A stretch of 32,000 bases of DNA from Geobacter sulfurreducens PCA. Its GTDB lineage: Bacteria; Desulfobacterota; Desulfuromonadia; Geobacterales; Geobacteraceae. The notes under the pieces were generated by a model that was not told the origin of the DNA, did not search any database, and worked only from the letters and a program-made list of their open reading frames with translations. The translations under genes and the position numbers were made by a program. Below are positions 2,528-27,754 of this stretch, piece by piece (positions within the stretch are counted from its first letter, which is position 1; each line of letters starts with the position of its first letter). The DNA lies in NCBI RefSeq assembly GCF_000007985.2, contig NC_002939.5, forward strand, positions 2,400,001-2,432,000. The letters run 5' to 3'.

Positions 2528-4267
2528 TCAGGGTTGCGTGAGCAGAAAGTCCGGATCCGCAAAGGTCCCTGCCGGCGTGAGCCCCCGAATCCGGTAGTAC
2601 TTCTGAAGCTCCTCGTCGAACCGGCCACGGTCGATGGGGGGAATGTCGACCCCTTCGCCGCTGGAGCCGGGTTCCGCAAAAAACCTCGCGGGCAGACAAT
2701 CATCCTTCACATCAAATCCGTTCGCACAGTTGTAGAACCGTTCGGTGAGACAGATCCGCCGCCCGATCTCCTTGAGGGACTGGGGCGTGTACTCGGTGCC
2801 GGTTGCGGCGGAGAGCAGTTCGGCATACTCTTCCAGCGTTGCACCGAAAAAGGAGAACTTACAGGCGACCAGGGAGTCGATGGCGGCATTGGTGTCTTCG
2901 GCAATGGCAATGATCCGCGCCTTGCCCGAAAACGAGAAACGGTCGGTGGCCACGGGCTTGCGCAGAATCTCGTGGGAGATGGGATAGGCCCTCAGATGGC
3001 ACCCCCCGCGATTGCTCGTACAGTAGGCGAGGGCCATGCCGTAGGCGCCGCGGGGATCATATGCCGGCAACTCCAGTCCCTTTACCTCCATGGACAGCTC
3101 AGGGCGGCCCAACGCTCGGGCTGCGCGCCGCGATCCCAAGGAAAGCAGCTCCCCGTCACCCCGGCGTAATGCCGTATCGACCAGCAGCCGCTGCACCTCC
3201 TCCCCGCCAGGGAAGCGGCCTCGGACCTCGCCCCAGGCCGAGAGCGTTGCGGCTGCGGAAATGGTGTCCATGCCCAGCTCATTGCACAGGGTGTTGGACT
3301 TGACGATGACATCAAGGCTCGCGATACCGTTCAGGGCGCCGAAGTGGGAAACAGTCTCGTACTCGGGGAGATGCTCACCCCGGGGCGTGCTTTTTTTGCA
3401 CTGGATGGGACAGCCGTAGCAGCCGTCCTTTTTCGCCTGATAGGCGCTCCGGATGGCCGGCCCCGAGTAGTTTGCCGATCCCTCGAAGACCGTATGGCGG
3501 AAGTTTTCCGTAGGGGCCATGCGCCGCTGGCGCATGAGGTCCACCAGGGCGGGGGTGCCATATTCCGCAATGCCCAGCTCACCGAAGATGACGGGCGAGG
3601 CCCGGAACAGGCGCATGACGTCCTGCCGCGCCCGGTCGAACCGCTCCCGATCCGCAACCGCCACGGGAATATCGCCGTTCACCACGACCGCCTTGAGCCC
3701 CTTGGCCCCCATGACCGCACCAAGCCCTCCCCGCCCTACCGAATTCCCTTCGCCCATCATGATATTGGCAAAGAGAACCCCGTTCTCGCCGGCAGGTCCG
3801 ATAGCGGCCACGCTACCCCGCCCTGACAGGGCCGCAACGGTTTCAGGCACCGTCTGACCCCAAAGCTCGGGCACATCCACAAACTCGACCCCGCCCGCCG
3901 TCACGACCAGGGTCACCGGCGTCTCGCTCCGGCCGGACAGGCGCAGCGCATCCACACCGAGACCCTTGAGGCGCCAAGCGAACCGCCCGCCGGCAGAACA
4001 ATCGTAAATGGTGCCGGTCAGGGGCGAGCGGGACACTACCGTAAGCCGGGCCGCCGTGGGCGCAGAAGTACCGCACAGGGGCCCCACGGCGAAGATGAGG
4101 GGCATGACAGGGTCAAAGGGGTCAAGGGCATGGAAACCGCGCATGAGACGGACCCCGAGCCCTCTCCCCCCCAGGTAGGCGTGCAAGAGTTCAACCGACA
4201 GATCCTCGCGCCATGCTGCGCGGGACGACAGATCAATATTCAGAATCGTACCGGTCCAACCAAACAT
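2528..4267 (-). CDS. aor: Aldehyde:ferredoxin oxidoreductase, tungstopterin/[4Fe-4S] family
   Basis: The ORF track gives 2528..4279 (GTG). I prefer the ATG at 4267 because AOR proteins start M(F/Y)GW.G..L..(D/N)L, here MFGWTGTILNIDLS. Contains CYGCPIQCKK (C-x2-C-x3-C cluster ligands), GLGAVMGAKGLKAVVV and CHLRAYP. Confidence 0.85.
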   Translation of the reverse strand: MFGWTGTILNIDLSSRAAWREDLSVELLHAYLGGRGLGVRLMRGFHALDPFDPVMPLIFAVGPLCGTSAPTAARLTVVSRSPLTGTIYDCSAGGRFAWRLKGLGVDALRLSGRSETPVTLVVTAGGVEFVDVPELWGQTVPETVAALSGRGSVAAIGPAGENGVLFANIMMGEGNSVGRGGLGAVMGAKGLKAVVVNGDIPVAVADRERFDRARQDVMRLFRASPVIFGELGIAEYGTPALVDLMRQRRMAPTENFRHTVFEGSANYSGPAIRSAYQAKKDGCYGCPIQCKKSTPRGEHLPEYETVSHFGALNGIASLDVIVKSNTLCNELGMDTISAAATLSAWGEVRGRFPGGEEVQRLLVDTALRRGDGELLSLGSRRAARALGRPELSMEVKGLELPAYDPRGAYGMALAYCTSNRGGCHLRAYPISHEILRKPVATDRFSFSGKARIIAIAEDTNAAIDSLVACKFSFFGATLEEYAELLSAATGTEYTPQSLKEIGRRICLTERFYNCANGFDVKDDCLPARFFAEPGSSGEGVDIPPIDRGRFDEELQKYYRIRGLTPAGTFADPDFLLTQP

Positions 4268-4337
4268 ATACTTACCCACTTATTGCGGCGTCAAAAATAA
4301 AATAATCTTAGCCAGATGCATCATCCGACTCCTACGC

Positions 4338-11877: not shown

Positions 11878-12081
11878 GTAGTGCCTCTTTCCAGGTAACT
11901 CCCGCCTATAGTAAGCAATCGGGGGCTCGGACGTCAACCGCTATCGCCACCGGGCATCCGTCATGGCCGCGTTACGTGATTCTGCCAATTGACCGAGGCG
12001 ATTTCGCCATGTGACGGAACCGAAACACAGGTTTTGCAACCAACATACAGAAATACAGATATTTGCATTTTATATCTTAAT

Positions 12082-12098
12082 TGGTCTTTATATTGCAT
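12082..12098 (+). promoter_or_regulatory. Candidate sigma54 (-24/-12) promoter upstream of the porin-like gene
   Basis: TGGTCTTTATATTGCAT has GG (12083-84), exactly 10 nt, then GC (12095-96). The -12 element TTGCAT is consensus and the -24 element is TGG only. It would give a leader of about 210 nt. Confidence 0.3.
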
Positions 12099-12319
12099 AG
12101 CTGGAATGTTTAAGTATCACGATTATGTGAATGCGATTGGCAAAACACGGGGGTCGCTTTAAAATTAACAAAATTTTATGTCAGGCCACCGCTCCCGACA
12201 CGAAGGAGGTGAAGACACAGCATCAATACGGCGGACTCAAACGCATCCCCCCGCCGAAGTATCAAAGCGGTTCGCGGCACGGTAGTTCACTTTTATTGTT
12301 TTATGGGAAAGGAGAGCAC

Positions 12320-13915
12320 ATGAAGCGTATGTCCAAAAAGGTTCTGGCAGCTGCCCTTCTGCTCGGTCTCAGCCAACCGTTCTCGGTTATGGCGGCCGAT
12401 ACCGACCTGCAGAAGAAGATGGAAAGCCTCGAGAAAGAACTTGAGGCCCTGAAGCAGCAGATGCAGGACACCGACAAGAAGGTCGATAAGGTTGAGCAGA
12501 AGTCCCTGGGTCGCTGGCTGACCATCAGCGGGGATTACCGGTTCAGGGTCGACTCTCTCAAGGGCAAAATTGTAGATCACGCCAGCGGTCCTGTGTTCGG
12601 ACAAACATACATGGCAAGGCTACTGGCAGGAGATACCCCCAACGTCGCACAGGCGACAGCTTTTGCCGCATCACAGCAGGCTGGTCAAGGATACAAACCC
12701 AAAAACGACTCTCTTATGACCCACCGCTTCGGGCTTAATCTTAAAGCCAAAGCCACCAAAGATGTTTCTGTCACTGCACGCCTTCTCATGTACAAAACCG
12801 CAGGCGCTCAAGATGATGATGCCGTAACCCCGGGTTACTTTGCAGATCGAACCGGCGTATTCGATGGAACACTTGGCCACATACCTTCTGACGGTCGACT
12901 CGCCGTTGACCGCGCCTACGCGACATGGAGCAACATCGGTGACGAGCCAATTTGGTTCTCAGTTGGTCGTAGGCCCTCAACTGGCGGAGTACCAACTCAC
13001 CTTAAGGAGAACAGGGAAAAACCTGACAGCAGTGGAACTCCTGCGCTTCTAGTTGATTATGCCTTTGACGGCATGACTGTAGGATGGGCGCCTGACCTTG
13101 AGGCGCTACCAGGAGCATATGCTAAGATCTGCTATGGTAGAGGTTTCGAAAACGGATTCACTGGGAAAAACGTCAACAATAGTCTCCATGACACCGACAT
13201 GCTCGGCGTGCAGATTATACCTTATGACACAGATGCACTCAGTATATTTTTCCAGTACAACAGAGGCTTCAACATTTTCGACTTTCCGAAGATGACTAGC
13301 TCAGCATTCGGCGACACGGCTCCAAGTACTGACCTAGGTGCCATCGACTGGTATGGGCTAAACTTCCTAGGCAAAGTAAAGAACATCGGCATTGGTAATT
13401 TCAATTGGTTTGTAAGTGGTGCCATAAGTGACGCTCAACCGAACAAAAATGTATCTGTCGCCGCAGGCAATCTCGGTCTTATGAACGGCACTTTCCTTGG
13501 CCAACAGGATGCAAGCAGCTTCAAGGATCGAACCGGTTGGGCCGTATACGCTGGCGGAAGGTACGACATCGAGTCAACCGGCACCAAACTCGGCTTCGAA
13601 TACAACCATGGTTCCAAAAACTGGATCACCTTTGCTCCGTCTGCCGATGATATGTGGACATCAAAGGTGGGAACCCGAGGCAACGCCTACGAGGGTTACA
13701 TAATTCAAGAACTGAAGCTGCAGCCCATCTCTTCATATCTGAGCAAAGTATTTTTCAAGCTCGGCTATCAGTATTATGATTTTGAGTACACTGGCAGTAA
13801 CAATTGGGTCGGAGCACCCCAAAAAATTGCAGACATTAAAGCTTCCGATCTCCAACTGATGGCTCCAGTTAAATACGCACAAGACATCTATGCAACCTTC
13901 GAGGTACACTTCTAG
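12320..13915 (+). CDS. Outer-membrane beta-barrel protein with N-terminal coiled coil (DUF3373-like porin)
   Basis: ATG at 12320 preceded by GGAAAGGAGAG. The ORF-track extension to 12131 has no support. Signal peptide MKRMSKKVLAAALLLGLSQPFSVMA/AD, a 35-aa heptad-like segment LQKKMESLEKELEALKQQMQDTDKKVDKVEQK, then alternating-polarity strands. The C-terminus YATFEVHF ends in Phe. GC is about 49% against about 61% in the flanks. Confidence 0.7.
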   Translation: MKRMSKKVLAAALLLGLSQPFSVMAADTDLQKKMESLEKELEALKQQMQDTDKKVDKVEQKSLGRWLTISGDYRFRVDSLKGKIVDHASGPVFGQTYMARLLAGDTPNVAQATAFAASQQAGQGYKPKNDSLMTHRFGLNLKAKATKDVSVTARLLMYKTAGAQDDDAVTPGYFADRTGVFDGTLGHIPSDGRLAVDRAYATWSNIGDEPIWFSVGRRPSTGGVPTHLKENREKPDSSGTPALLVDYAFDGMTVGWAPDLEALPGAYAKICYGRGFENGFTGKNVNNSLHDTDMLGVQIIPYDTDALSIFFQYNRGFNIFDFPKMTSSAFGDTAPSTDLGAIDWYGLNFLGKVKNIGIGNFNWFVSGAISDAQPNKNVSVAAGNLGLMNGTFLGQQDASSFKDRTGWAVYAGGRYDIESTGTKLGFEYNHGSKNWITFAPSADDMWTSKVGTRGNAYEGYIIQELKLQPISSYLSKVFFKLGYQYYDFEYTGSNNWVGAPQKIADIKASDLQLMAPVKYAQDIYATFEVHF

Positions 13916-13934
13916 GCCACAGCAGATGAACACC

Positions 13935-13963
13935 GGGAGGGAGGGCGCCAGCCCCCCTCCCCC
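13935..13963 (+). other. GC-rich intercistronic stem-loop without U-tract
   Basis: GGGAGGG(AGGG)...CCCTCCC can pair (7 bp or more), and no T-run follows. It sits between the porin-like gene stop and the small-protein RBS (AAAGGAG at about 14015). Confidence 0.3.
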
Positions 13964-14029
13964 AGCCCTACGGGGCACCATGCCACAGGCGGCCTGCTCC
14001 GCCAACAACAGTACAAAGGAGACGGAACA

Positions 14030-14341
14030 ATGAAAAAAGCAGTATCGATCGTTATGGCACTCGCACTCCTCACCATGAGCCTCGTTACCTTTAGCGGCAC
14101 GGCCAGCGCCGCCGAAGTGAAGATGATCGCCACCATCAAAAAGATTGAGATGAAGGGCAGCGCGGCAACGGTTACCCTGAAGGACACCAAGAGCGACAAG
14201 ACCGTAACCGTTACGGTCAAGGACGAGCTTACTCTCGACAAGTTCAAGGACAAGCGGATCGTTGAGGGCGACGAAATTCGCCTGAAGTATGACGATGCAA
14301 CGGGTGAGTCCAAGCTCTTCAGAAAGACCGCCGGCTGCTGA
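14030..14341 (+). CDS. Small secreted Lys-rich beta-type protein ending in Cys (unknown function)
   Basis: 103 aa, with RBS AAAGGAG 8 nt upstream. Signal peptide ...FSGTASA/AEVK. The mature protein is about 76 aa with alternating strands (VTLKDTKSDKTVTVTVKDELTL). Its only Cys is the very last residue (...KTAGC). Confidence 0.65.
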   Translation: MKKAVSIVMALALLTMSLVTFSGTASAAEVKMIATIKKIEMKGSAATVTLKDTKSDKTVTVTVKDELTLDKFKDKRIVEGDEIRLKYDDATGESKLFRKTAGC

Positions 14342-14376
14342 TGCTCCGGGGGCGCTGGAGCCCTCTGCGGAACCGT

Positions 14377-14409
14377 TGCAGCCCGGGCGCCTCGGCTGCA
14401 ATTTTCTTC
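14377..14409 (+). terminator. Probable intrinsic terminator/attenuator after the small-protein gene
   Basis: TTGCAGCC-(10-nt loop)-GGCTGCAA forms an 8-bp stem, directly followed by TTTTCTTCC. Confidence 0.5.
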
Positions 14410-14420
14410 CGTTAATTAAT

Positions 14421-14468
14421 CGTTTTATTTAGATATATCATCTATATGTATAGCCAAATAAAACGAAC
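14421..14468. promoter_or_regulatory. 11-bp perfect inverted repeat in the AT-rich region upstream of the octahaem gene
   Basis: TCGTTTTATTT (14421-14431) and AAATAAAACGA (14458-14468) are exact reverse complements separated by 26 nt. The spacer contains the palindrome GATATATC (14433-14440) and several -10-like hexamers. Confidence 0.4.
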
Positions 14469-14489
14469 AACTTACGCACGAGGTACCCA

Positions 14490-15860
14490 ATGAAGAATAC
14501 GACGTTCATCGCCACCCTCATGGCGAGCGTGGCAGTGGCGGCCCTGGTACAGGCCAAGGATCATCCGGGCAAGGAATATATCCAGAAAAACGGCTACCAG
14601 GGGCCGGCAACCTGCGAGGTCTGCCATCCCGGCGCGGCAAAGGAGTTCCTGAACTCCGTGCACTGGAAGCACGCCTCGAAGGTCGACAACGTTGAGAACA
14701 TTGACCCGAAGCAGGAATACGGCATGAAAAACCGTATCTACACCATGTGCAACGGGAACGACATCGTCAACAATCTGAAGGAGATTCCGCCCAGCCCCGA
14801 GACGGGCAAGACCAAGTACTCGGGCTGCAACTCCTGCCATCCCGGGAATCACATCCAGGACGTGGGGAGCACCGGGCCCGAAGCGGAAGCCGCAGTGGAC
14901 TGCCTTGTCTGCCACTCCTCCACCTATGATCACAGCAAGCGCAAGCCCTTCAAAGACGAGAAGGGGAACGTGGTGCTCGGCCAGGATCGCAGCACCGATG
15001 CGGCCCTTTCCATTGCCACCCCGACGGTCAAGAACTGTATGACCTGCCACGAGGCTGCAGGGGGCGGCGTGCTGGTGAAGCGCGGGTTCGCCTTCAACAA
15101 GGAGCACGATGTCCATGCGGCCAAGGGGATGGTCTGCGTCGACTGCCACAAGACGAAGAACCACAAGATCCCCACGGGCTACGATCCGAACAACTGGGCC
15201 CATGACGGCGTACGTCTCTCCTGCACCGACTGCCACACGGCAAAGCCCCACAAGGACGAGGACTACAACCGCCATACGGCGCGCATCGCCTGTCAGACCT
15301 GCCACATCCCCCGGACCGGCGGCGCCTTTGCCAAGGATTTCACGAAGTGGGAACAGCTCTCCAACAAGTTCTACGAGCCGACCACGCTCAAAAAAGAAGC
15401 AAATGAAACGGCTCCCGTCTACGCATGGTACAACCTGACCGTGGCCAACCGCCCTGACTTCATCGGGCCCAAGGGTGACCGCAAGGACGGCAAGAGCAAG
15501 ATCTACCCTTTCAAGATCTTCCAGGGCAAGGCGTACTTTAACAAGAAGGACGGCCAGCTCCTGTCCATGGACTTCGCTCCGCCCATGGCAACGGGTGACA
15601 CCCTCGCCGGCGTGGCATCAGCTGCCAAAATCCTTGGGATCAAGGATTACGAACCGGTCCCCGGCTGGCAGACCATCTACTTCGGCAGCAACCACCAGGT
15701 GGCTCCCAAGGAGAAGGCTCTTACCTGCTATAACTGCCATGCTCCCAACGGCATTCTGAACTTCCGCGAGCTCGGCTATTCGTCCGACGAGGTCAAAAAG
15801 CTCACGAGCCCCGAACTCTACTTTGAGAAAATCGCAGAGAAGATGCGGGAAGAGTGGTAA
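14490..15860 (+). CDS. Octahaem c-type cytochrome, Sec-exported
   Basis: 456 aa, with RBS GAGG 6 nt upstream. Signal peptide ...AALVQA/KD. Eight CXXCH motifs (CEVCH, CNSCH, CLVCH, CMTCH, CVDCH, CTDCH, CQTCH, CYNCH). About 145 haem-free residues separate haems 7 and 8. Confidence 0.9.
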   Translation: MKNTTFIATLMASVAVAALVQAKDHPGKEYIQKNGYQGPATCEVCHPGAAKEFLNSVHWKHASKVDNVENIDPKQEYGMKNRIYTMCNGNDIVNNLKEIPPSPETGKTKYSGCNSCHPGNHIQDVGSTGPEAEAAVDCLVCHSSTYDHSKRKPFKDEKGNVVLGQDRSTDAALSIATPTVKNCMTCHEAAGGGVLVKRGFAFNKEHDVHAAKGMVCVDCHKTKNHKIPTGYDPNNWAHDGVRLSCTDCHTAKPHKDEDYNRHTARIACQTCHIPRTGGAFAKDFTKWEQLSNKFYEPTTLKKEANETAPVYAWYNLTVANRPDFIGPKGDRKDGKSKIYPFKIFQGKAYFNKKDGQLLSMDFAPPMATGDTLAGVASAAKILGIKDYEPVPGWQTIYFGSNHQVAPKEKALTCYNCHAPNGILNFRELGYSSDEVKKLTSPELYFEKIAEKMREEW

Positions 15861-15893
15861 TCGCGACGTAATCTTCAACGTTCCCGATACAAT

Positions 15894-15924
15894 GGGAGGT
15901 GGACCCAGTCCACCTCCTTTTTTT
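15894..15924 (+). terminator. Rho-independent terminator of the octahaem gene
   Basis: GGGAGGTGGAC-CCA-GTCCACCTCC followed by TTTTTTT. Confidence 0.85.
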
Positions 15925-15943
15925 GTGCCCGCCGTCAGGGTAC

Positions 15944-15975
15944 AAAAAAGCCCGCTGCCGCAGGGGCAACGGGCT
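15944..15975 (-). terminator. Rho-independent terminator of the LysR gene
   Basis: On the minus strand AGCCCG-T-TGCC-CCTGC-GGCA-G-CGGGCT is followed by TTTTTTG. It is convergent with the previous terminator. Confidence 0.7.
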
Positions 15976-16002
15976 CCGGTCCGTCATGCACGCACACTTC
16001 TT

Positions 16003-16926
16003 TCAGGTGGGGCAGGAACTTCGGTGACACTGGTCGGTAAACACCGTGTCCAGGCACGCCAGGAAGTCGCTGACCAGCCGATCCTGCACCTTGCTCCTGC
16101 TCAGGGCGACCGTCCGCTGGCGGCTGTGGCAGAATCCCTCGACTCTGTGCTGCTTCAGCTGGCCGTTTTCCAGATATTTATTCACCAGACAGGAGGAAAC
16201 GAACGCCACCCCTCCCCCGTCAAGGACCGTATCGACCGTGAGATGCAGATCGTCATAGACCACGGTGCTCCGGAACCCCTCCAGGTCCTTGCCGATGGAG
16301 GCAAGATTGAGCCTGAGCAGTTTCTTGGAACTGCAGCCGTCCTTGCGCGTGATGAGGCGTTCCTCGAAGAGCCGCTCGATCGTCACGAGCGGAGTGGGGA
16401 TGCCGAGAGACGGCGCGCTCACGAAGACCAGTTCGTCCCGCGGCAGGGTCGCAGTATGGAAATCGGCCAGGTCCAAGTCTTCGCAGTGCTCTATGATACC
16501 GATATCGAACTCCCGTTCGGCCAGCCCCTTTACCGCCTGCTCCGGGCTGTAGAACATGAACTTGAGATCGACGATATCGGCGTTGCGCAGCATGAACCGG
16601 TTGAGAACCTTGGGCATGTGGGCGATGCCGAACGATGGCGTACAGCAGATGGAAAGGCGCTGCCTTCCGGTAAATTTCTTGAGTTCGTCCTGCAGTGTCT
16701 TCTCGATGTCGAGGATGGCCTGGGCCTTCCGTACCACGGCCTCACCTGCAGCGGTGAGCATCATGACAGGACCCGAGCGATCCAGCAACTCGCAGCCGTA
16801 ACGCTCCTCGAGGAACTTGACCCGTTGCGACACCGCAGATTGGGTGATGCACAGCTCTGCAGCGGCCTTGGAAAAACTTCCTTTCTCAGCCGTCACGATG
16901 AGCGTTTTGAGATACAGCGTCTCCAT
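16003..16926 (-). CDS. LysR-family transcriptional regulator
   Basis: The ORF track starts at a TTG (16956). I prefer the ATG at 16926, with GGGAAGG 6 nt upstream, giving METLYLKTLIVTAEKGSFSKAAAELCITQSAVSQRVKFLE, a canonical LysR wHTH. A C-terminal substrate-binding-like domain follows. Confidence 0.9.
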   Translation of the reverse strand: METLYLKTLIVTAEKGSFSKAAAELCITQSAVSQRVKFLEERYGCELLDRSGPVMMLTAAGEAVVRKAQAILDIEKTLQDELKKFTGRQRLSICCTPSFGIAHMPKVLNRFMLRNADIVDLKFMFYSPEQAVKGLAEREFDIGIIEHCEDLDLADFHTATLPRDELVFVSAPSLGIPTPLVTIERLFEERLITRKDGCSSKKLLRLNLASIGKDLEGFRSTVVYDDLHLTVDTVLDGGGVAFVSSCLVNKYLENGQLKQHRVEGFCHSRQRTVALSRSKVQDRLVSDFLACLDTVFTDQCHRSSCPT

Positions 16927-17042
16927 ACCAAACCTTCCCGAAAGAAACTTCCCCAACCATCCTCTAGATAACGACCCATCATAAATAAAATTATCGATGC
17001 CGCCGCTGAAGCCGCATTAGAACTGCGTGTTTTTTCATACCT

Positions 17043-17057
17043 ATAAGTTTTGCTTAT
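17043..17057. promoter_or_regulatory. LysR-type T-N11-A dyad (ATAAG-N5-CTTAT)
   Basis: Perfect interrupted palindrome ATAAGTTTTGCTTAT in the 314-bp lysR/decahaem divergent region. It fits the T-N11-A rule and is flanked by a second, roughly concentric dyad: CATTAGAA (17015-22) and TTCTAATG (17080-87). Confidence 0.4.
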
Positions 17058-17240
17058 ACAAACACAAATAAAATGCGGTTTCTAATGTGTGCTTTCAGAA
17101 GTACTATTTGCATTCGTGAAGACGCAATAACCTTGCCACGACCACTAACCCATGGAAGGAGGAAATAGATACCCGATTATCATTCGATATTCTGAATAGT
17201 TAGAAATTCCAAGAACAACACACCAACGAAAGGAGCAACC

Positions 17241-18332
17241 ATGCGAAACAAGCTGTATGGCGTGAAAGCGCTAAAAATGGCCGGAATGGTCGCGATTTCG
17301 CTGCTTGTCGGTGCCTGCGCCACCGGGAAGATCAGGGAACGGGTCCTGACATTGCCGACCATCGAAGGCGCTTCGTACGTCGGCGACACAGACTGTGCCC
17401 AGTGCCATGACAAGATCGCGGCACCCTTCGTCCGGAGTATTCACGGCCGGATCGCCGACTTCGAAGTGATGGGGGGAACCAGGGGATGCGAGTCATGCCA
17501 CGGTGCCGCCAGCCTTCACACCACGGAAGGAGATTCCGCCAAGATTCTTTCGTTCGCAAGCCTGTCGTCGGACCAGGCATCTGCCGTCTGCCTCAAATGC
17601 CACTCGGCCGGCACCCACATGGAGTGGGCAGGCAACGAACATGCCCTCAACGATGTGGCCTGCACCGACTGTCATAAAATCCACCAGGACAAGACCGTTG
17701 CCCCGCACAGCCTGAAAATGGCACAGCCCGAGCTCTGCTACTCCTGCCATCAGGAGTATCGCGCAAAGGCCAACTTCCCTTCCCACCATCCCATCCGAGA
17801 GGGGAAAATGACCTGCACGAGCTGCCACGAAGCCCACGGTTCCGGCCAGAAGAACCTGAAGACCGAGGAGCGGGTGAACGACCTCTGCCTTAACTGCCAC
17901 AGCCGCTACCAGGGGCCCTTCGTCTTCGAGCATGCGCCGGTCCAGGAAGACTGCACCATCTGTCATGACGCACACGGCACCGTAGCCAACAACCTGCTTC
18001 GCCAGAGCGAGCCCTTCCTCTGCCTCCAGTGCCACGAGAGCCACTTCCACATCACCCGCGAGGGAGCCACGATCCCGGCGGGCAATGTCGCCCTTGACGC
18101 CAACAAGGACGGGGGCACCACCTACCCTGCCGGCCAGACGATCAGCTCATCCAACAGCGTAACCATGCCGAACAATCTCGGCGCTGAAGGATGGCGGATG
18201 GCCTTCGGCACCAAGTGCAGCGTATGCCACACCCAGGTGCACGGCAGCGACCTTCCCTCCCAGACCGCACCCACGGTCAACAGCACCGGCACCAGGGGAT
18301 GGCCGTCCGGCGGCAAGGGATTGACCCGCTAA
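17241..18332 (+). CDS. Decahaem c-type cytochrome, MtrA/DmsE/PioA family, with lipoprotein signal
   Basis: 363 aa, with RBS AAAGGAG 6 nt upstream. Ten CXXCH motifs. Strong resemblance to the Shewanella MtrA blocks I recall (LCYSCH...SHHP....MTCTSCHEAHGS, NDLCLNCH...GPFVFEHAPV.EDCTICHDAHG, LCLQCH, C-terminal CSVCHTQVHGS). The signal peptide ends in the lipobox-like LLVGAC. Confidence 0.9.
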   Translation: MRNKLYGVKALKMAGMVAISLLVGACATGKIRERVLTLPTIEGASYVGDTDCAQCHDKIAAPFVRSIHGRIADFEVMGGTRGCESCHGAASLHTTEGDSAKILSFASLSSDQASAVCLKCHSAGTHMEWAGNEHALNDVACTDCHKIHQDKTVAPHSLKMAQPELCYSCHQEYRAKANFPSHHPIREGKMTCTSCHEAHGSGQKNLKTEERVNDLCLNCHSRYQGPFVFEHAPVQEDCTICHDAHGTVANNLLRQSEPFLCLQCHESHFHITREGATIPAGNVALDANKDGGTTYPAGQTISSSNSVTMPNNLGAEGWRMAFGTKCSVCHTQVHGSDLPSQTAPTVNSTGTRGWPSGGKGLTR

Positions 18333-18356
18333 CAACTTCTAGAGAAAGGAGCTTCT

Positions 18357-20384
18357 ATGCGACATATCGGTAAATGGCTCATGCCGTTGCCCGTACTGAT
18401 CCTCTGCGCCCCGCTTGCTCTCCTTGCCGAGGAAGGTCACAAGCCCTTCTCGGCCACCATGGAAACGGGTGGAGCGGGGCTTGCGGTCTCCGACGACATC
18501 AGCCGGGTGAACGAATATTCCTCCGTCAGAACCGAGCCCGGCATCAACCCGTACGGCAAGGTCGACATCCAAATCGACAAGGGAGGAGTCGAACTGGACC
18601 TCAACAGCCGCTACCTGGATTCCCGCGACCAGACCCACGGTGCGCGGATCGACGTGAAGCGGTTCTTCAAGAGCAGTTTCAGCTACGATGCCTTCCAGCA
18701 CTGGCTCGACCATGACAAACTCCAGTATCTGGATGCCTCGATCCCGGCTGCACCGGTGGCGGGCGCGTTCGATACCACCGGAGCCATCCTCGGCGTGCCC
18801 ACCGCTACCGGCACCACAAATCTTTACGCGTACACCGCCAACCCGATCGGACCGAACTTCGCGCCCAACTTCCTCGTTACGCGCAGATCCGACGGGGCTC
18901 GCTTCGTAACCAACGTGGCGCCGTCCGACACGGCAACCTATGCCGTTCAGCAACTCGGCCGGGCATCACTGTACGGCGAGGATATGGTTCCGAACCAGGA
19001 CTTTTCCATCGTGCGGCGGGAGTGGAAGAGCAATTCCGACTTCACCATCCCCCAACTGCCCAATCTCACCTTTCACTTCGGTTTCCGGGAGGAGACCCGT
19101 GAAGGGTGGGAGCAATCCATCGGCATGAGCAAGTGCACCTCGTGCCACATTACCGGCCAAAGCAAGCAGATCAGCGAAAGCACCCGCGACCTGACCGCGG
19201 GAGTGACCGGCAAATTCGGTCTCCTGACCATGAACTACACCTATCTGAACCGCCAGTTCCGTGAGAACGGCGCCGATCCGGTCCGCCGCTACGACCCGGC
19301 CCTCTCGCCAGGGGCAGCGCTGCCTGCAAACTACTATACCGGGGCAAACTCCCCCCCCACCTTCGACAACCGGATGCTCTACGATTACCGGGACGGCTAC
19401 CTGCCTTACGACGTGACCCCAGACTCCAACAAGGACAGCCACGTTGTCAAAGCCAAGGTTGATCTTCCCCGGGACACCACGGTCTTTGCCAGCTACGTGA
19501 AAGCAACGGTGGATAGCGACAAATCGGACGATCCCGGCTACTTCACCCTGGACAAGAAGACCCTCGAATCCGAGTATGACGCCTGGAGCGGCAAGGTCAG
19601 CACCACTCTCTGGAAACGACTGACTCTCACTCTTCGGGGCAAGCTGGAAAAACTCCAGGATGACGACGTGGCCATCACCTACACGCCCATCGCCTACAAC
19701 GACGGCAATGCCGCCAATGACATCTTCGGCTTCCCCGGCGCCACGGCTTCGGACATCCTGATGCTGCAAACCATCAACCGCCACTCCAGCGCATCGCGCG
19801 ACGTGGCGACCCTGGGGCTCGACTCGGTCTACCGCCTGGCGAAGCGAACCACCCTCCGCCTCTCCTACGAGTTCAAAAACGAGGATCGCGACGACTCCTT
19901 CTTCGGCACAACCAAGACGCACACCGTCAAGGCCGCCCTCAACGCCAGGCCCACCAATACCCTTTCGGCCCGGGCAAGCTACACCTTCAAGGCCATCGAA
20001 AACCCTTTCCAGAACCCAACCGCCGGGCTGGTCCCCTTCACCCAGTCGGCCAGCGGCTACGGCTACCTGGTGGGCAACGGCCCCACCTATGGCGTTGAGT
20101 TTTACGACCGCAGGACTGCCGACCTGACCAACCGCCCCGACACGGTCCACGAGGGGAGCCTTTCCACCACCTGGTCCCCCTCGCCGCGCTTCTCCGCCAC
20201 GGCCTTCGTGCGGGTGAAGAATGAAAGCAACGACCTGAATAAAACCACCTGGAAACAGGAGACTTACGTGCCGGGCGTATCGCTCTGGTACGCCCCCTCG
20301 GACAAGGTGAGCATGACCCTGGCATACACCTATCTCAAGCAGACGACCGAGAATTCAATGTGCCAGGGGCTTTACGACGGCTGA
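18357..20384 (+). CDS. MtrB/PioB-like outer-membrane beta-barrel, N-terminal 675 codons up to the in-frame TGA
   Basis: RBS AAAGGAG 6 nt upstream, 24 nt after the decahaem stop. Signal peptide ...APLALLA/EE. Long run of amphipathic strands. Internal CTSCH at aa 260-264. As written it ends ...CQGLYDG with no OMP beta-signal. Confidence 0.75.
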   Translation: MRHIGKWLMPLPVLILCAPLALLAEEGHKPFSATMETGGAGLAVSDDISRVNEYSSVRTEPGINPYGKVDIQIDKGGVELDLNSRYLDSRDQTHGARIDVKRFFKSSFSYDAFQHWLDHDKLQYLDASIPAAPVAGAFDTTGAILGVPTATGTTNLYAYTANPIGPNFAPNFLVTRRSDGARFVTNVAPSDTATYAVQQLGRASLYGEDMVPNQDFSIVRREWKSNSDFTIPQLPNLTFHFGFREETREGWEQSIGMSKCTSCHITGQSKQISESTRDLTAGVTGKFGLLTMNYTYLNRQFRENGADPVRRYDPALSPGAALPANYYTGANSPPTFDNRMLYDYRDGYLPYDVTPDSNKDSHVVKAKVDLPRDTTVFASYVKATVDSDKSDDPGYFTLDKKTLESEYDAWSGKVSTTLWKRLTLTLRGKLEKLQDDDVAITYTPIAYNDGNAANDIFGFPGATASDILMLQTINRHSSASRDVATLGLDSVYRLAKRTTLRLSYEFKNEDRDDSFFGTTKTHTVKAALNARPTNTLSARASYTFKAIENPFQNPTAGLVPFTQSASGYGYLVGNGPTYGVEFYDRRTADLTNRPDTVHEGSLSTTWSPSPRFSATAFVRVKNESNDLNKTTWKQETYVPGVSLWYAPSDKVSMTLAYTYLKQTTENSMCQGLYDG

Positions 20385-20822
20385 GCGGGCATCATCGTAT
20401 CGGGCCAGTTTGGCTCGACTTGTGACGAATACCAGTACGACACCGACGTCCACACGGTATCGCTCACCACAAACTATGACGCAACCGAGAAGCTCAAGCT
20501 CTTCGCCAATGCCATGTACAACGACGCCGAAGCCCGCATGAACGGCCTCTATTTCCCCTCGTTCGCGGAACTCGGCTACACGGACCCGGTCCTCACCTCC
20601 GCCTTCTACGGTCTGCAAAACCTGCCGCGCATCCAGGAGTATTCCGACCTCCGCTACCGGCAGATCGACCTGAGCGCCGGGGGAACGTACCAATTCACCC
20701 CCAATCTTTTCATGACCGCCCAGGCCGGATTCCAGCAGTTCATGGACGATGCCCCCTATGTCTACGGTGACCAGGACGGCATCACCTACACCGGGTCGGT
20801 CGGAATCGGTTATAAGTTCTAG
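20385..20822 (+). CDS. In-frame C-terminal continuation of the same barrel (145 codons) carrying the beta-signal
   Basis: Same frame as 18357..20384, with no stop between 20385 and 20820. GC3 of the 44 codons from 20385 through the first ATG (20514-20516) is about 77% (34/44), which is coding-like. No SD precedes the ATG at 20514. Ends ...YTGSVGIGYKF, a typical OMP C-terminus, and the strong terminator comes only after it. Confidence 0.6.
   Translation, partial: AGIIVSGQFGSTCDEYQYDTDVHTVSLTTNYDATEKLKLFANAMYNDAEARMNGLYFPSFAELGYTDPVLTSAFYGLQNLPRIQEYSDLRYRQIDLSAGGTYQFTPNLFMTAQAGFQQFMDDAPYVYGDQDGITYTGSVGIGYKF
20395..20428 (+). other. SECIS-like hairpin downstream of the in-frame TGA
   Basis: Apical hairpin U-CGGGCC-AGUUU-GGCUCG-A (20400-20418: 7 bp with one G.U, pentaloop containing GU, loop G 26 nt from the U of UGA). 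A 4-bp lower stem UCGU/ACGA (20395-98 with 20425-28) lies across an asymmetric internal loop. Confidence 0.3.
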
Positions 20823-20863
20823 ATCGGCGTGCCCTTCAGGGGCCTCCTTCCTGGAATGTCATC

Positions 20864-20891
20864 GGGCGGACCGAACGGTCCGCCCTTTTTT
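20864..20891 (+). terminator. Rho-independent terminator of the decahaem/barrel operon
   Basis: GGGCGGACC-GAAC-GGTCCGCCC followed by TTTTTT. Confidence 0.85.
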
Positions 20892-25524: not shown

Positions 25525-27660
25525 TCAGTAGAGCCGCTGGTGGCACCTGACGCAGTTGACCGGATCGCTAACGGTGAAGGCCATGCTGAAGCCGTGGCAG
25601 GCACCGCAGGATTTGCCCTGCTCCATCTCCTTCATGGTGGAGGATTTCCGGCCGGCCCCGGCGGTGACGATCGTGCCGTGGCAGTCGCTGCAGGCGTATC
25701 CCTTGGCGGTGTGGTTGCGGTGGCTGAACAGAACGCTCCCCACGTCGGCGGGGAGATCGTACTTGATCCCCTTGGTGGCGGGATGGCACCTGTCGCAGCC
25801 GGCGGTGACGGGAAACGCAGCCGATCCGTCGTGACAGGCGCCGCAGGAGGTGCCCCTCTCCATCTCCGCCATGGTAACGCGCCGGTTGTCGGGACCGGGC
25901 CGGTAGAGGGCATCGTGACAGTCACCGCAGCCATGTACCTTGAGATGGACGTCATGGCTGAAGCGGGCGCCGGACGGCGTAAAGGGGATGTCTTTCACCG
26001 GGTGGCATCTGGTGCAGTTCTCCCTGACGGTGAAGGCGACCTTGCCGTCGTGGCAGGCGCCGCAGGACTCGCCCTTCTCCATGGCGGCCATAGTGACACG
26101 CCGGGCCGTGACTCCGGCGCCGACGACGGCATTGTGACAGTCCACGCAGGAATAGAGGGCCGTATGGGAGCTGTGGCTGAATCGGGTTATGCCGGTCTGT
26201 TTTACGGGGATGGCCACCTCTACGGTCTCCCGGTGGCACGCGCCGCACTTCCCGCGGACCGAGAAGGCGGATGTGCCGTCATGGCAGGCGCCGCAGGAAT
26301 TCCCCTGTTCCATCTGGGGCATGGTCCACCGGCGGTTGCCGGGGCCGGCCTTGAACAGATCGTTGTGACAGTCGCCGCAGGTGTTGGCCTCCAGATGTTT
26401 CACATGGGGAAAATACGAATTGGCCGCCATGTTCACGTCGCGCAGGGGGTGGCATCTGCTGCAGCTGTCCGCGGCCGTTGCCGGGAAGGCGCTTTTACCG
26501 TCGTGACAGGCGCCGCACGACAAGCCCTTGCCCATGTCGGCCATGGTGGCGCCCACACGGGCCGCACCGGTGGTGAAAATGCCGTTGTGGCAGTCGCCGC
26601 AGCCATACATCTGCCGGTGCGCGTCGTGACTGAAGACCACATTCCCCGCCACGGCCGTCCTGAAGCTGACATCACGGGTCTTCGGGTGACAGCGGTCACA
26701 GTTGCCGGTCACACCGAAAACGGTCTTATCCTCGTGGCAGACGCCACAGGAACGCCCCTGTTCCATATCCTTCATGGTGTAACGCCTGCTGGCGGCCCCG
26801 CCGATAAAGATGCCGCTGTGGCAGCTGTCGCAGTTGAGGAGCTGTGTGTGGAGCTTGTGGCTGAACATGGCGTCGTGGGCGGCGAAGGACACCTCCCTCA
26901 CATTGGCGTGACACCGGTCGCAATCCCCCTTGACCGAGAAGGCGGTATTGCCGTTGTGGCACCCCCCGCATGATTTTTGAGTCTCCATCTCCTGCATGGT
27001 ATAGCGCCGGCTGTCAGGGCCGGCCGTGAAAAGCCTCCCGTGGCACTCGCCACAGCCGTAGCCGGCTGCCAGATGGAGCGTGTGACTGAACGTAGCTGAT
27101 GCCGCAAAGGTGATGTCACGGACCACATGGCACCTGGTGCAGTCCCCCTTGACCGAAAAGGCAGTGCTGCCGTCATGGCAGGCGCCGCACGATTTCCCCT
27201 GCTCCATGGCCTTCATGGATACATTGGGGTTGTTGGTTGCCGCCCTGAAGACGGCATTGTGGCAATCGGCACATCCGTAGGCCCCGAGGCCCAGATGGAA
27301 GGCGTGGCTGAAGACCACTGCGCCGAAGTTGGGGATGTCGATGGGGACTTCTTTGGTCACATGACAGCGGGTGCACGCCGGCAGGCCGAAGGCGCGCTTG
27401 CCGTTGTGGCAGGCGCCGCACGAAGCACCCTGCTCCATGGCCTTCATGGTGACCGGCGCAGCCTTATCGCCAATCTTGAAGAGCGTGTTGTGGCAAAGGG
27501 TGCAGTTGTTGCCCAGGGACTTGAGGTGAACGGGGTGGCTGAAGGCAACCGTGCCCGCGGTCTCAGTGGCGAACGTGACGATCTTGTAGTCACGGGCAAA
27601 GAGAATGACGGGAAGAAACAAAAGCACGATGGCAGGGACAAGAAGGCGTAGGCGTTTCAC
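25525..27660 (-). CDS. 27-haem c-type cytochrome, polymer of nine c7-type triheme domains
   Basis: 27 CXXCH motifs counted. The ORF-track start is a TTG at 27699. I prefer the GTG at 27660 (GGGAG 5 nt upstream), giving the signal peptide (M)[23 protein letters not shown]. Matches my recollection of G. sulfurreducens GSU2210. Confidence 0.9.
25540..27591 (-). repeat. Nine tandem repeats of about 225-240 nt, each encoding one triheme c7-like domain
   Basis: Each unit reads FSH..H - CxxCH - TM..ME.G.SCG.CH - ...C.RCH. The block (T/S)M..M(E/G)....SCGxCH occurs nine times ([135 protein letters not shown]). Confidence 0.9.
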
Positions 27661-27754
27661 GGGAACTCCCGGATGAGTGAGGAGTAGACGCGCCGGCAAT
27701 CCGGCGGCGACTCATCGTTTTTTTCCCGGCATGCGGCGCGCGGATTCCAGTGGG

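Follow-up and report, generated by a model that had tools for sequence, protein, structure and literature searches.

Two gene modules at GSU2199-GSU2204 of Geobacter sulfurreducens: an MtrAB-like pair with a predicted selenocysteine in its barrel, and a neighbouring DUF3373-octahaem cassette

Do six adjacent genes for exported barrels, multihaem cytochromes and a LysR regulator make up one electron-transfer system? The question is raised by a 9-kb interval of Geobacter sulfurreducens (GSU2199-GSU2204), which lies in a stretch of 32,000 nucleotides analysed here as a whole (hereafter the window, whose numbering is used throughout). A sequence-only reading had taken its six open reading frames for a single, LysR-centred and apparently undescribed porin-cytochrome island. 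The interval instead holds two functionally separate gene modules, neighbours in G. sulfurreducens only incidentally. Module B, composed of the divergent lysR gene (GSU2202), omcK (GSU2203) and omcL (GSU2204), is a conserved unit in about 50 Desulfuromonadia loci, whereas Module A, encoding a DUF3373 porin-like barrel, a small exported protein and the octahaem cytochrome PpcF (GSU2201), is a widely distributed, self-contained cassette that occurs without this trio. Nor is the locus undescribed: the NCBIfam models NF041027, NF041028 and NF041036 were built on the GSU2202-2204 genes, and OmcK and OmcL have been named (PMC10553843), so that it is already catalogued. What is added here is a barrel with a predicted selenocysteine (Sec), a covarying hairpin resembling a selenocysteine insertion sequence (SECIS) and a Cys-Sec-Cys motif, the invariant haem motif of this barrel, its lipoprotein MtrA-like partner, the lack of an MtrC, and the independence of the left cassette.

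Features of Module B (coordinates, strand, description):
15951-15964, minus strand, terminator-like hairpin after the LysR gene (hairpin search)
16003-16926, minus strand, LysR-family regulator GSU2202, divergent from omcK (NF041036)
16927-17240, no strand, divergent promoter region with 40% GC and a LysR-type palindrome
17241-18332, plus strand, OmcK (GSU2203), MtrA/DmsE-family decahaem lipoprotein (ten CXXCH motifs, profile matches)
18357-20822, plus strand, OmcL (GSU2204), 821-residue MtrB-like barrel when read through UGA (NF041027, Pfam, structural model)
19134-19148, plus strand, codons of the invariant OmcL CXXCH motif (C260-T-S-C-H264)
20361-20423, plus strand, conserved Cys669...Sec676...Cys689 motif, C-x-G-[WL]-Y-x-G-U-A-x4-S-x-Q-F-G-S-x-C
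20382-20384, plus strand, in-frame UGA, predicted Sec residue 676 (TGA in 55 of 55 related loci)
20400-20418, plus strand, SECIS-like hairpin UCGGGCCA-GUU-UGGCUCGA, 15 nucleotides past the UGA
20864-20885, plus strand, terminator-like hairpin ending omcK-omcL (9-bp stem with 8 G-C pairs, then a T run)

The in-frame UGA of omcL

All six reading frames were found exactly where the sequence-only reading had placed them, but its barrel of about 820 codons calls for a qualification: the frame 18357-20822 exists, and the in-frame TGA at 20382-20384 had been missed, which leaves a single gene only if this codon is decoded. We compared 58 loci (L001-L058) from genome assemblies, mostly metagenome-assembled genomes (MAGs) of Desulfuromonas, Desulfuromusa, Geobacter, Geopsychrobacteraceae and Trichloromonas, of which 55 could be read at this position. 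The codon that follows the C-x-G-W-Y-x-G motif is TGA in every one of the 55, and never TAA, TAG or a sense codon. Downstream of it the frame continues without a gap, and without requiring a start codon, into a conserved segment of 140-165 amino acids (35-61% identity) that ends in ...YVYGDxDG...GYxF (...GYKF in OmcL), with the terminal Phe of a beta-signal of the outer-membrane-protein type. A product of 675 residues would be deprived of this signal and of about five strands. The Cys-Sec-Cys motif is kept across the 55 loci, except in some with insertions and in one degraded locus, and Cys669, Sec676, Cys689, the two Cys of the haem motif and one Cys in the signal peptide make up the complete Cys/Sec inventory of OmcL.

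The hairpin UCGNNCCA-GUU-UGGNNCGA, whose apical GUU loop contains a G, has 94.9% of its cells paired over 44 distinct sequences. Compensatory changes occur at two pairs (CG/GC/UA/GU and AU/GU/UG/UA); this covariation was reached by none of 500 shuffles, and slid registers collapse. A search of the window against Rfam gave no match, and there is no Rfam model for the OmcL hairpin. No tRNA and no sel genes were found in the 32-kb window, while the selenium-metabolism gene yedF adjoins omcL in several lineages, and another selenoprotein, ExtKL, has been predicted for G. sulfurreducens (PMC5877670).

Database homologues of the N-terminal part of OmcL all end at C-x-G-W-Y-x-G (105 of 105, with lengths of 612-697 amino acids), which means that gene prediction halted at this one point in each genome. 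The G. sulfurreducens entries listed (AAR35580.1, ADI84963.1, BBA70655.1 and others) are likewise cut at the UGA after 675-677 amino acids, one 308-amino-acid fragment excepted, and the last 145 residues of OmcL are unannotated in them. When the C-terminal part was searched against 1.84 billion representative sequences, mostly short fragments were returned, together with full-length relatives. Two of these, P0362 and P0384, carry a Cys aligned with the UGA (EG-C-GGGII versus DG-U-AGII), and two others, P0399 and P0420, show neither Cys nor Sec at this position; all four keep the CXXCH motif, and P0362, P0399 and P0420 match the GSU2204 model.

Because TGA is used in 55 of 55 loci, the tail is conserved in frame, the hairpin covaries and a Cys-containing relative exists, comparative sequence evidence identifies the in-frame TGA of omcL as a selenocysteine codon. 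This agrees with the NCBIfam model name, which already includes "(seleno)protein", and with a 2026 review table in which the barrel is listed as a selenoprotein family (PMC13188914). Were the TGA a true stop, or omcL a pseudogene, a truncated barrel of 675 residues would be made and the downstream frame would stay untranslated. The lengths of the deposited proteins and the silence of Rfam would suit such a view, yet the comparative data already contradict it: the exclusive use of TGA, the conserved downstream frame, the covarying hairpin and the full-length Cys-containing relative all speak for decoding, and truncation would cost the protein its last strands and assembly signal. We hold a stop or pseudogene to be scarcely credible.

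OmcK and OmcL as an MtrAB-like pair

Mtr-type conduits have long been said to be missing from Geobacter. OmcK scores 245.2 bits against the DmsE/MtrA family TIGR03508 (cut-off 192.2) besides 481 bits against NF041028 (cut-off 325), and it matches MtrA in the MtrCAB structure from Shewanella baltica (6r2q_A) at E 8.6e-45 over all ten haem motifs. Two traits distinguish OmcK from MtrA. The first is a lipobox, L-[GAS]-A-C-ATGAIRE, which is kept in about 50 homologues or loci, while MtrA itself is not known to have a lipobox or lipid anchor. The second is an insert of 47 residues between haems 9 and 10; it is the counterpart of this segment that MtrA exposes at the cell surface (PMC7198977). Murali et al. 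treated OmcK as extracellular (PMC10553843), but since it is homologous to MtrA it is, judged by sequence, more likely to be the threaded component. The gene omcL adjoins omcK in all loci, and in the window the two are spaced by 24 nucleotides. Two loci, L055 and L057, look degraded, as OmcK has only four haem motifs, its frame is interrupted by stops in L057, and the read-through past the TGA amounts to 17 and 34 codons; they are possibly pseudogenised copies or assembly errors.

OmcL reaches 645 bits (cut-off 350) with NF041027, "GSU2204 family CXXCH-containing (seleno)protein", a model that covers only the part before the Sec codon. GSU2203, GSU2204 and the LysR protein are essentially type members of their three NCBIfam families, and all score well above the cut-offs. 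The match of OmcL to Pfam MtrB_PioB (PF11854; E 2e-12, 47 bits versus a 23-bit cut-off) is weak but above threshold, and a profile search of PDB sequences with OmcL returned no match. An AlphaFold2 model of residues 1-675 only, built without haem, shows a large open barrel (predicted local distance difference test, pLDDT, 76.5; predicted template-modelling score, pTM, 0.73), and its best Foldseek match is MtrB (6r2q_B; E 1.4e-13, template-modelling score 0.55). About 21 strands in the model and about five C-terminal ones counted by eye add up to about 26, as in MtrB. The N-terminal part of OmcL shares 99% identity with a cluster representative, and this cluster holds AAR35580.1, ADI84963.1 and an entry named "C-type cytochrome omcL"; the "OMCL" of one Geobacter preprint was rejected as a mention of the gene, being a clustering algorithm.

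Barrels usually have short periplasmic turns and long extracellular loops, and the OmcL model follows this pattern, with turns of 2-6 residues between successive long loops (117-216, 304-356, 436-480 and 549-595). The CXXCH motif, of which K259, C260, C263 and H264 are invariant in 82 OmcL homologues, caps an unusually extended hairpin (237-258/264-287). As the motif and the Sec loop, which follows strand 21, are both on the long-loop side by strand parity, they are predicted to face outward. With this barrel haem motif, the 18 haems counted in the sequence-only reading become 19: the eight motifs of the octahaem and the ten of the decahaem cytochrome are present, and the one in the barrel had been overlooked.

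Taken together, we consider it probable, though well short of certain, that the region comprises two separate modules and that Module B is a two-component conduit of the MtrAB type whose barrel bears both Sec and haem. In such a conduit, OmcK, with its MtrA-family haem chain, would be anchored by an N-terminal lipid in the inner leaflet of the outer membrane and run through the barrel of OmcL. OmcL would reach its full size of about 26 strands only if UGA-676 were read as Sec with the help of the downstream hairpin, and its outward-predicted loops would carry one covalent c-haem (CXXCH 260-264) and the Cys669-Sec676-Cys689 centre. These two would form the outer terminus of the wire and exchange electrons with an external partner.

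The pair resembles MtrA-MtrB of Shewanella (PDB 6R2Q) as well as PioAB and MtoAB in that a DmsE/MtrA-family decahaem cytochrome is encoded beside a barrel of the MtrB/PioB type. It differs from MtrA-MtrB, apart from the lipobox and the insert of OmcK, in the invariant CXXCH motif and selenocysteine of the barrel and in the lack of an accompanying MtrC gene. Family searches detected no MtrC-type cytochrome in the locus of the window, though a partner might be encoded elsewhere. As 29 of the 34 loci with enough flanking sequence have no other multihaem gene within 6 kb, no MtrC-type partner travels with omcKL. A single CXXCH motif in an outer-membrane beta-barrel also brings to mind Cyc2 of iron oxidisers, a fused monohaem cytochrome-porin. 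Cyc2, however, has its haem domain on the N-terminal side of a small barrel and does without a separate multihaem partner, whereas the OmcL motif is found in a loop midway along a large barrel that is paired with a decahaem cytochrome. ExtHIJKL is another Geobacter outer-membrane cluster with a selenocysteine-bearing redox protein, ExtKL (PMC5877670; PMC6148476), but the Ext selenoprotein is a cytochrome, whereas that of OmcKL is the barrel. No ExtI, ExtJ or ExtK model of NCBIfam matched above noise, and the sole matches to Ext models, to the haem motifs of ExtM, ExtN and ExtO (E 1e-5 to 3e-3), were noise far under the cut-offs. The view that these genes stand outside the named Geobacter conduits was thus upheld: no homology to components of OmaB-OmbB-OmcB, ExtABCD, ExtEFG or ExtHIJKL was detected, and the locus lies outside the five clusters that Jimenez Otero et al. 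2018 removed (PMC6148476).

Murali et al., who named OmcK and OmcL, suggested that they act as a conduit in organisms that partner with methane-oxidising archaea, and remarked on the lack of a third cytochrome (PMC10553843). A survey of Desulfuromonadia catalogued MtrA-like genes with MtrB/PioB-like porins as well as PpcF/OTR, and an "Mtr pathway" with clustered mtrAB was reported elsewhere, selenocysteine being unmentioned in both (PMC11492766; PMC12133095). The "MtrAB" of Desulfuromonas acetexigens in the latter study may belong to the same family as OmcKL, but its accessions did not turn up in the supplements and cluster tables searched. The literature turned up no genetic or biochemical test of OmcKL, and the supplements of a transposon study do not mention the genes of the region (PMC5585712).

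The regulator GSU2202 scores 519.5 bits against NF041036, "multiheme cytochrome-associated LysR family" (cut-off 210 bits), and its gene is found beside OmcK/OmcL in nearly all related loci, mostly in divergent orientation. A perfect LysR-type palindrome, ATAAGTTTTGCTTAT (ATAAG-N5-CTTAT), lies at 17043-17057 in the region between lysR and omcK and is a candidate site for the regulator, which probably controls the omcK-omcL operon. The 10-mer TATTTGCATT occurs in both AT-rich leaders (12060-12069 and 17105-17114; three matches with at most one mismatch versus 0.14 expected). As a regulatory motif common to the two leaders it was rejected, since it is not kept in the Geobacter MAG L004, and its recurrence is probably due to chance.

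Module A and its relation to Module B

Features of Module A (coordinates, strand, description):
11938-12319, no strand, AT-rich non-coding leader upstream of Module A, 382 bp, 46.6% GC
12320-13915, plus strand, gene 1, DUF3373 outer-membrane porin-like barrel (Pfam PF11853, signal peptide)
14030-14341, plus strand, gene 2, small exported OB-fold protein ending in KTAGC (structural model, homologues)
14490-15860, plus strand, gene 3, octahaem c-type cytochrome GSU2201/PpcF (eight CXXCH motifs, related to octahaem tetrathionate reductase)
15894-15918, plus strand, terminator-like hairpin ending Module A (11-bp stem, then a T run)

The first barrel matches PF11853 at E 2.4e-161 (537.8 bits versus a 26.1-bit cut-off; residues 126-531, profile positions 1-409 of 409) and carries an N-terminal coiled-coil-like segment. 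TCDB places its family, 1.B.62, among putative porins of 18 strands (PMC4827864). The small protein is 100% identical to a G. sulfurreducens hypothetical protein and has 558 homologues; across phyla it shows 51-65% identity, with an invariant C-terminal KTAGC and terminal Cys. No Pfam or NCBIfam family matched it. Its AlphaFold2 model has an OB fold (b1-b3, helix, b4-b5, flexible tail), and as Foldseek found only generic OB folds with this model, the terminal Cys permits only an analogy to a SoxY-like carrier. One sigma-70-like site is present in the leader (12137-12165).

PpcF is a divergent relative of octahaem tetrathionate reductase (OTR). It matches OTR of Shewanella oneidensis (PDB 1SP3, 1sp3_A) at E 2.4e-28, shares its eight haem motifs and keeps the equivalent of its Cys64, which is invariant in the PpcF subfamily. 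Despite the eight motifs, its 165.5 bits on the OTR model TIGR04315 stay below the 375-bit cut-off, and several other multihaem families are matched as well. In the segment of residues 79-87, a nearly invariant Met79 aligns with OTR Lys56, and the adjacent Lys80 with Lys57. Lys56 was reportedly described by Mowat and co-workers in 2004 as the ligand of the catalytic haem 2 of OTR, and the active site of PpcF may differ from that of OTR. PpcF also differs from OTR in its setting, a conserved cassette with the DUF3373 barrel and the OB-fold protein ending in Cys. It has more than 1300 homologues, among others from Geobacter, Geotalea, Geomonas, Holophaga, Syntrophales and Gemmatimonadota, and the best 120 of these are all at least 70% identical.

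Since DUF3373 is a putative porin family and the partner is a homologue of OTR and not a wire-like cytochrome, the left barrel is unlikely to be a cytochrome sheath and would rather be a porin that feeds a periplasmic redox enzyme. It would let a soluble substrate into the periplasm, where the OTR-like PpcF would reduce it and the terminal Cys of the small protein would serve as partner or carrier for PpcF. The porin-cytochrome interpretation of the sequence-only reading fits the right half, where an MtrA-like decahaem cytochrome adjoins an MtrB-like barrel, and not the left. The profile searches proposed in that reading for the six products placed the DUF3373, LysR and MtrA/DmsE proteins above their cut-offs, gave the right barrel a match to Pfam MtrB_PioB but not to TIGR03509, and found no family for the small protein.

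We were curious to know whether the two modules nonetheless work together. In all five loci examined outside Geobacter (L059-L063; Holophaga, a Syntrophobacterales bacterium, a Gemmatimonadota MAG and others), the order DUF3373, protein of 90-108 amino acids, octahaem was found with no OmcK, OmcL or LysR nearby, and the LysR-OmcK-OmcL trio stands alone in most of the 58 loci. The terminators noted for each transcription unit were recovered as hairpins that end the octahaem unit, the barrel unit and, on the minus strand, lysR. Upon exposure to hematite or magnetite, GSU2203 and GSU2204 went up (2.4-2.7-fold with hematite) and GSU2201 went down (PMC4070692). Because each half occurs alone, has its own terminator and responds to iron oxides in the opposite direction, the two are mostly unlinked.

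A single LysR-centred six-gene machine, in which both barrels would sheath cytochromes and together form a new trans-outer-membrane electron-transfer system, appears improbable on these grounds and in view of the putative porin family of the left barrel and its OTR-homologous partner, which is not an elongated MtrA-like wire. Some observations do point toward it. The six genes lie together between housekeeping genes in both G. sulfurreducens and the Geobacter MAG L004, and the order of porin, small periplasmic protein and cytochrome in Module A recalls ExtI-ExtJ-ExtKL (PMC6148476). Moreover, in the five of 34 loci that do have another multihaem gene near omcKL, this is always an OTR-family octahaem, with DUF3373 beside it in four, which we regard as a residual hint of a link between the modules.

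In Desulfuromusa (L038 12617-17309; also L024, L026, L036, L039, L041 and L046), omcL faces a convergent operon that encodes a monohaem cytochrome c, DUF3373 and a true OTR. With a score of 546.7 on TIGR04315 this OTR is a true family member, of a different subfamily and arrangement from the PpcF cassette. The selenium-metabolism gene YedF (TIGR03527) is located beside the Desulfuromusa OTR operon or directly after omcL.

The surroundings of the interval largely agree with what had been read from the sequence. Of the flanking housekeeping genes, miaB, rpsT, holA and leuS were confirmed by family search, while the presumed lptE had no family match. N-terminal signal sequences are visible in all five products other than LysR, as had been claimed, and the AT-rich leader (46.6% GC) and the low-GC DUF3373 gene (50.4%) stand out against the 60.6% of the whole window. 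Just past leuS, at 25525-27699 on the minus strand, the window encodes a protein of 724 amino acids with nine c7-type trihaem domains (TIGR04257, nine matches; about 27 haems), and MAG L004 has this gene near the locus too. A gene of the aldehyde:ferredoxin oxidoreductase family (AFOR_N and AFOR_C; 2528-4279, minus strand) is unrelated to the finding. A megablast search of plasmids with the right half returned nothing.

Possible roles of OmcKL

Several points weigh against a conduit as proposed above. The score of OmcL on the MtrB/PioB model TIGR03509 is 38 bits, far under the 240-bit cut-off. The structural model, limited to residues 1-675, lacks the haem and the last 146 residues, and its pLDDT falls below 50 at the CXXCH tip and at 668-675, while the outward placement of the two sites and any proximity of haem and Sec are predictions from strand parity. 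At the protein level, nothing was found to attest to haem attached to the barrel, incorporated selenium or an OmcK-OmcL complex. In Module A, the replacement of the catalytic-haem ligand Lys by Met makes the enzymatic activity of PpcF uncertain. Furthermore, a strain without the five named conduits, which still carries omcKL, reduces neither Fe(III) nor Mn(IV) and retains some residual electrode activity (PMC6148476); OmcKL is therefore insufficient for metal reduction under those conditions, or it is unexpressed.

The failure of this strain to reduce metals would also suit a different role, in which OmcKL is a cell-surface chalcogen redox enzyme and not a general conduit to minerals or electrodes. 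The barrel haem and the Cys-Sec-Cys site, fed by the OmcK wire, would make or break S-S or Se-Se bonds of substrates outside the cell, for example elemental sulfur, polysulfide or selenium species, and the OTR-like cassette would handle soluble products. In TsdA and SoxAX, chemistry on S-S bonds is performed by c-haems with His/Cys ligation. Sec is obligatory throughout the 55 loci, with a conserved Cys on either side, the Sec motif and CXXCH both have a predicted outward orientation, the family centres on Desulfuromonas, Desulfuromusa and Geobacter lineages, and OTR-family octahaems and YedF recur as neighbours. However, the haem and Sec loops are about 14 strands apart on the barrel, and P0399 and P0420, which keep CXXCH with neither Cys nor Sec, show Sec to be inessential to the core function of the fold. 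The induction by hematite and magnetite likewise points to mineral contact (PMC4070692). On balance, we judge this role rather unlikely.

Electrons might also flow inward through OmcKL, from partner cells, Fe(II) or cathodes, as in PioAB and MtoAB. The MtrAB/PioAB/MtoAB family includes two-component electron-uptake systems that have no MtrC. Homologues in syntrophic sulfate reducers have been proposed to take up electrons from methane-oxidising archaea, and the HotSeep-1 homologue is highly expressed in methane-oxidising consortia (PMC10553843). The cultures in which hematite and magnetite induced the genes were, however, donating electrons (PMC4070692). We consider uptake decidedly improbable. 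A two-component MtrAB-type conduit remains the reading that we prefer.

The selenoprotein nature of OmcL would have practical consequences: modelling, heterologous expression or knock-in from the deposited entries would use a barrel that lacks about five strands and the assembly signal, and its expression also requires selenium and the Sec machinery. As to Module A, an octahaem cytochrome at least 70% identical across several phyla among its best 120 homologues makes the DUF3373/OB-Cys/PpcF cassette highly conserved. OmcKL, for its part, is an obvious candidate for the residual electrode activity of the strain deprived of the five named conduits (PMC6148476). Chemically, it is unusual for an outer-membrane barrel to bear both selenocysteine and haem, and the combination could hint at a substrate other than iron. 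We may speculate, while thinking it unlikely, that OmcL provides a selenium-dependent catalytic site at the cell surface, made up of an eleventh haem and the Cys-Sec-Cys centre and powered by OmcK, which would reduce or oxidise insoluble sulfur or selenium species, with the neighbouring cassette processing soluble products in the periplasm. If true, OmcL would combine an outer-membrane beta-barrel and a terminal reductase in one protein and offer the first case of a selenoenzyme whose active site lies at the outer face of a bacterial cell.

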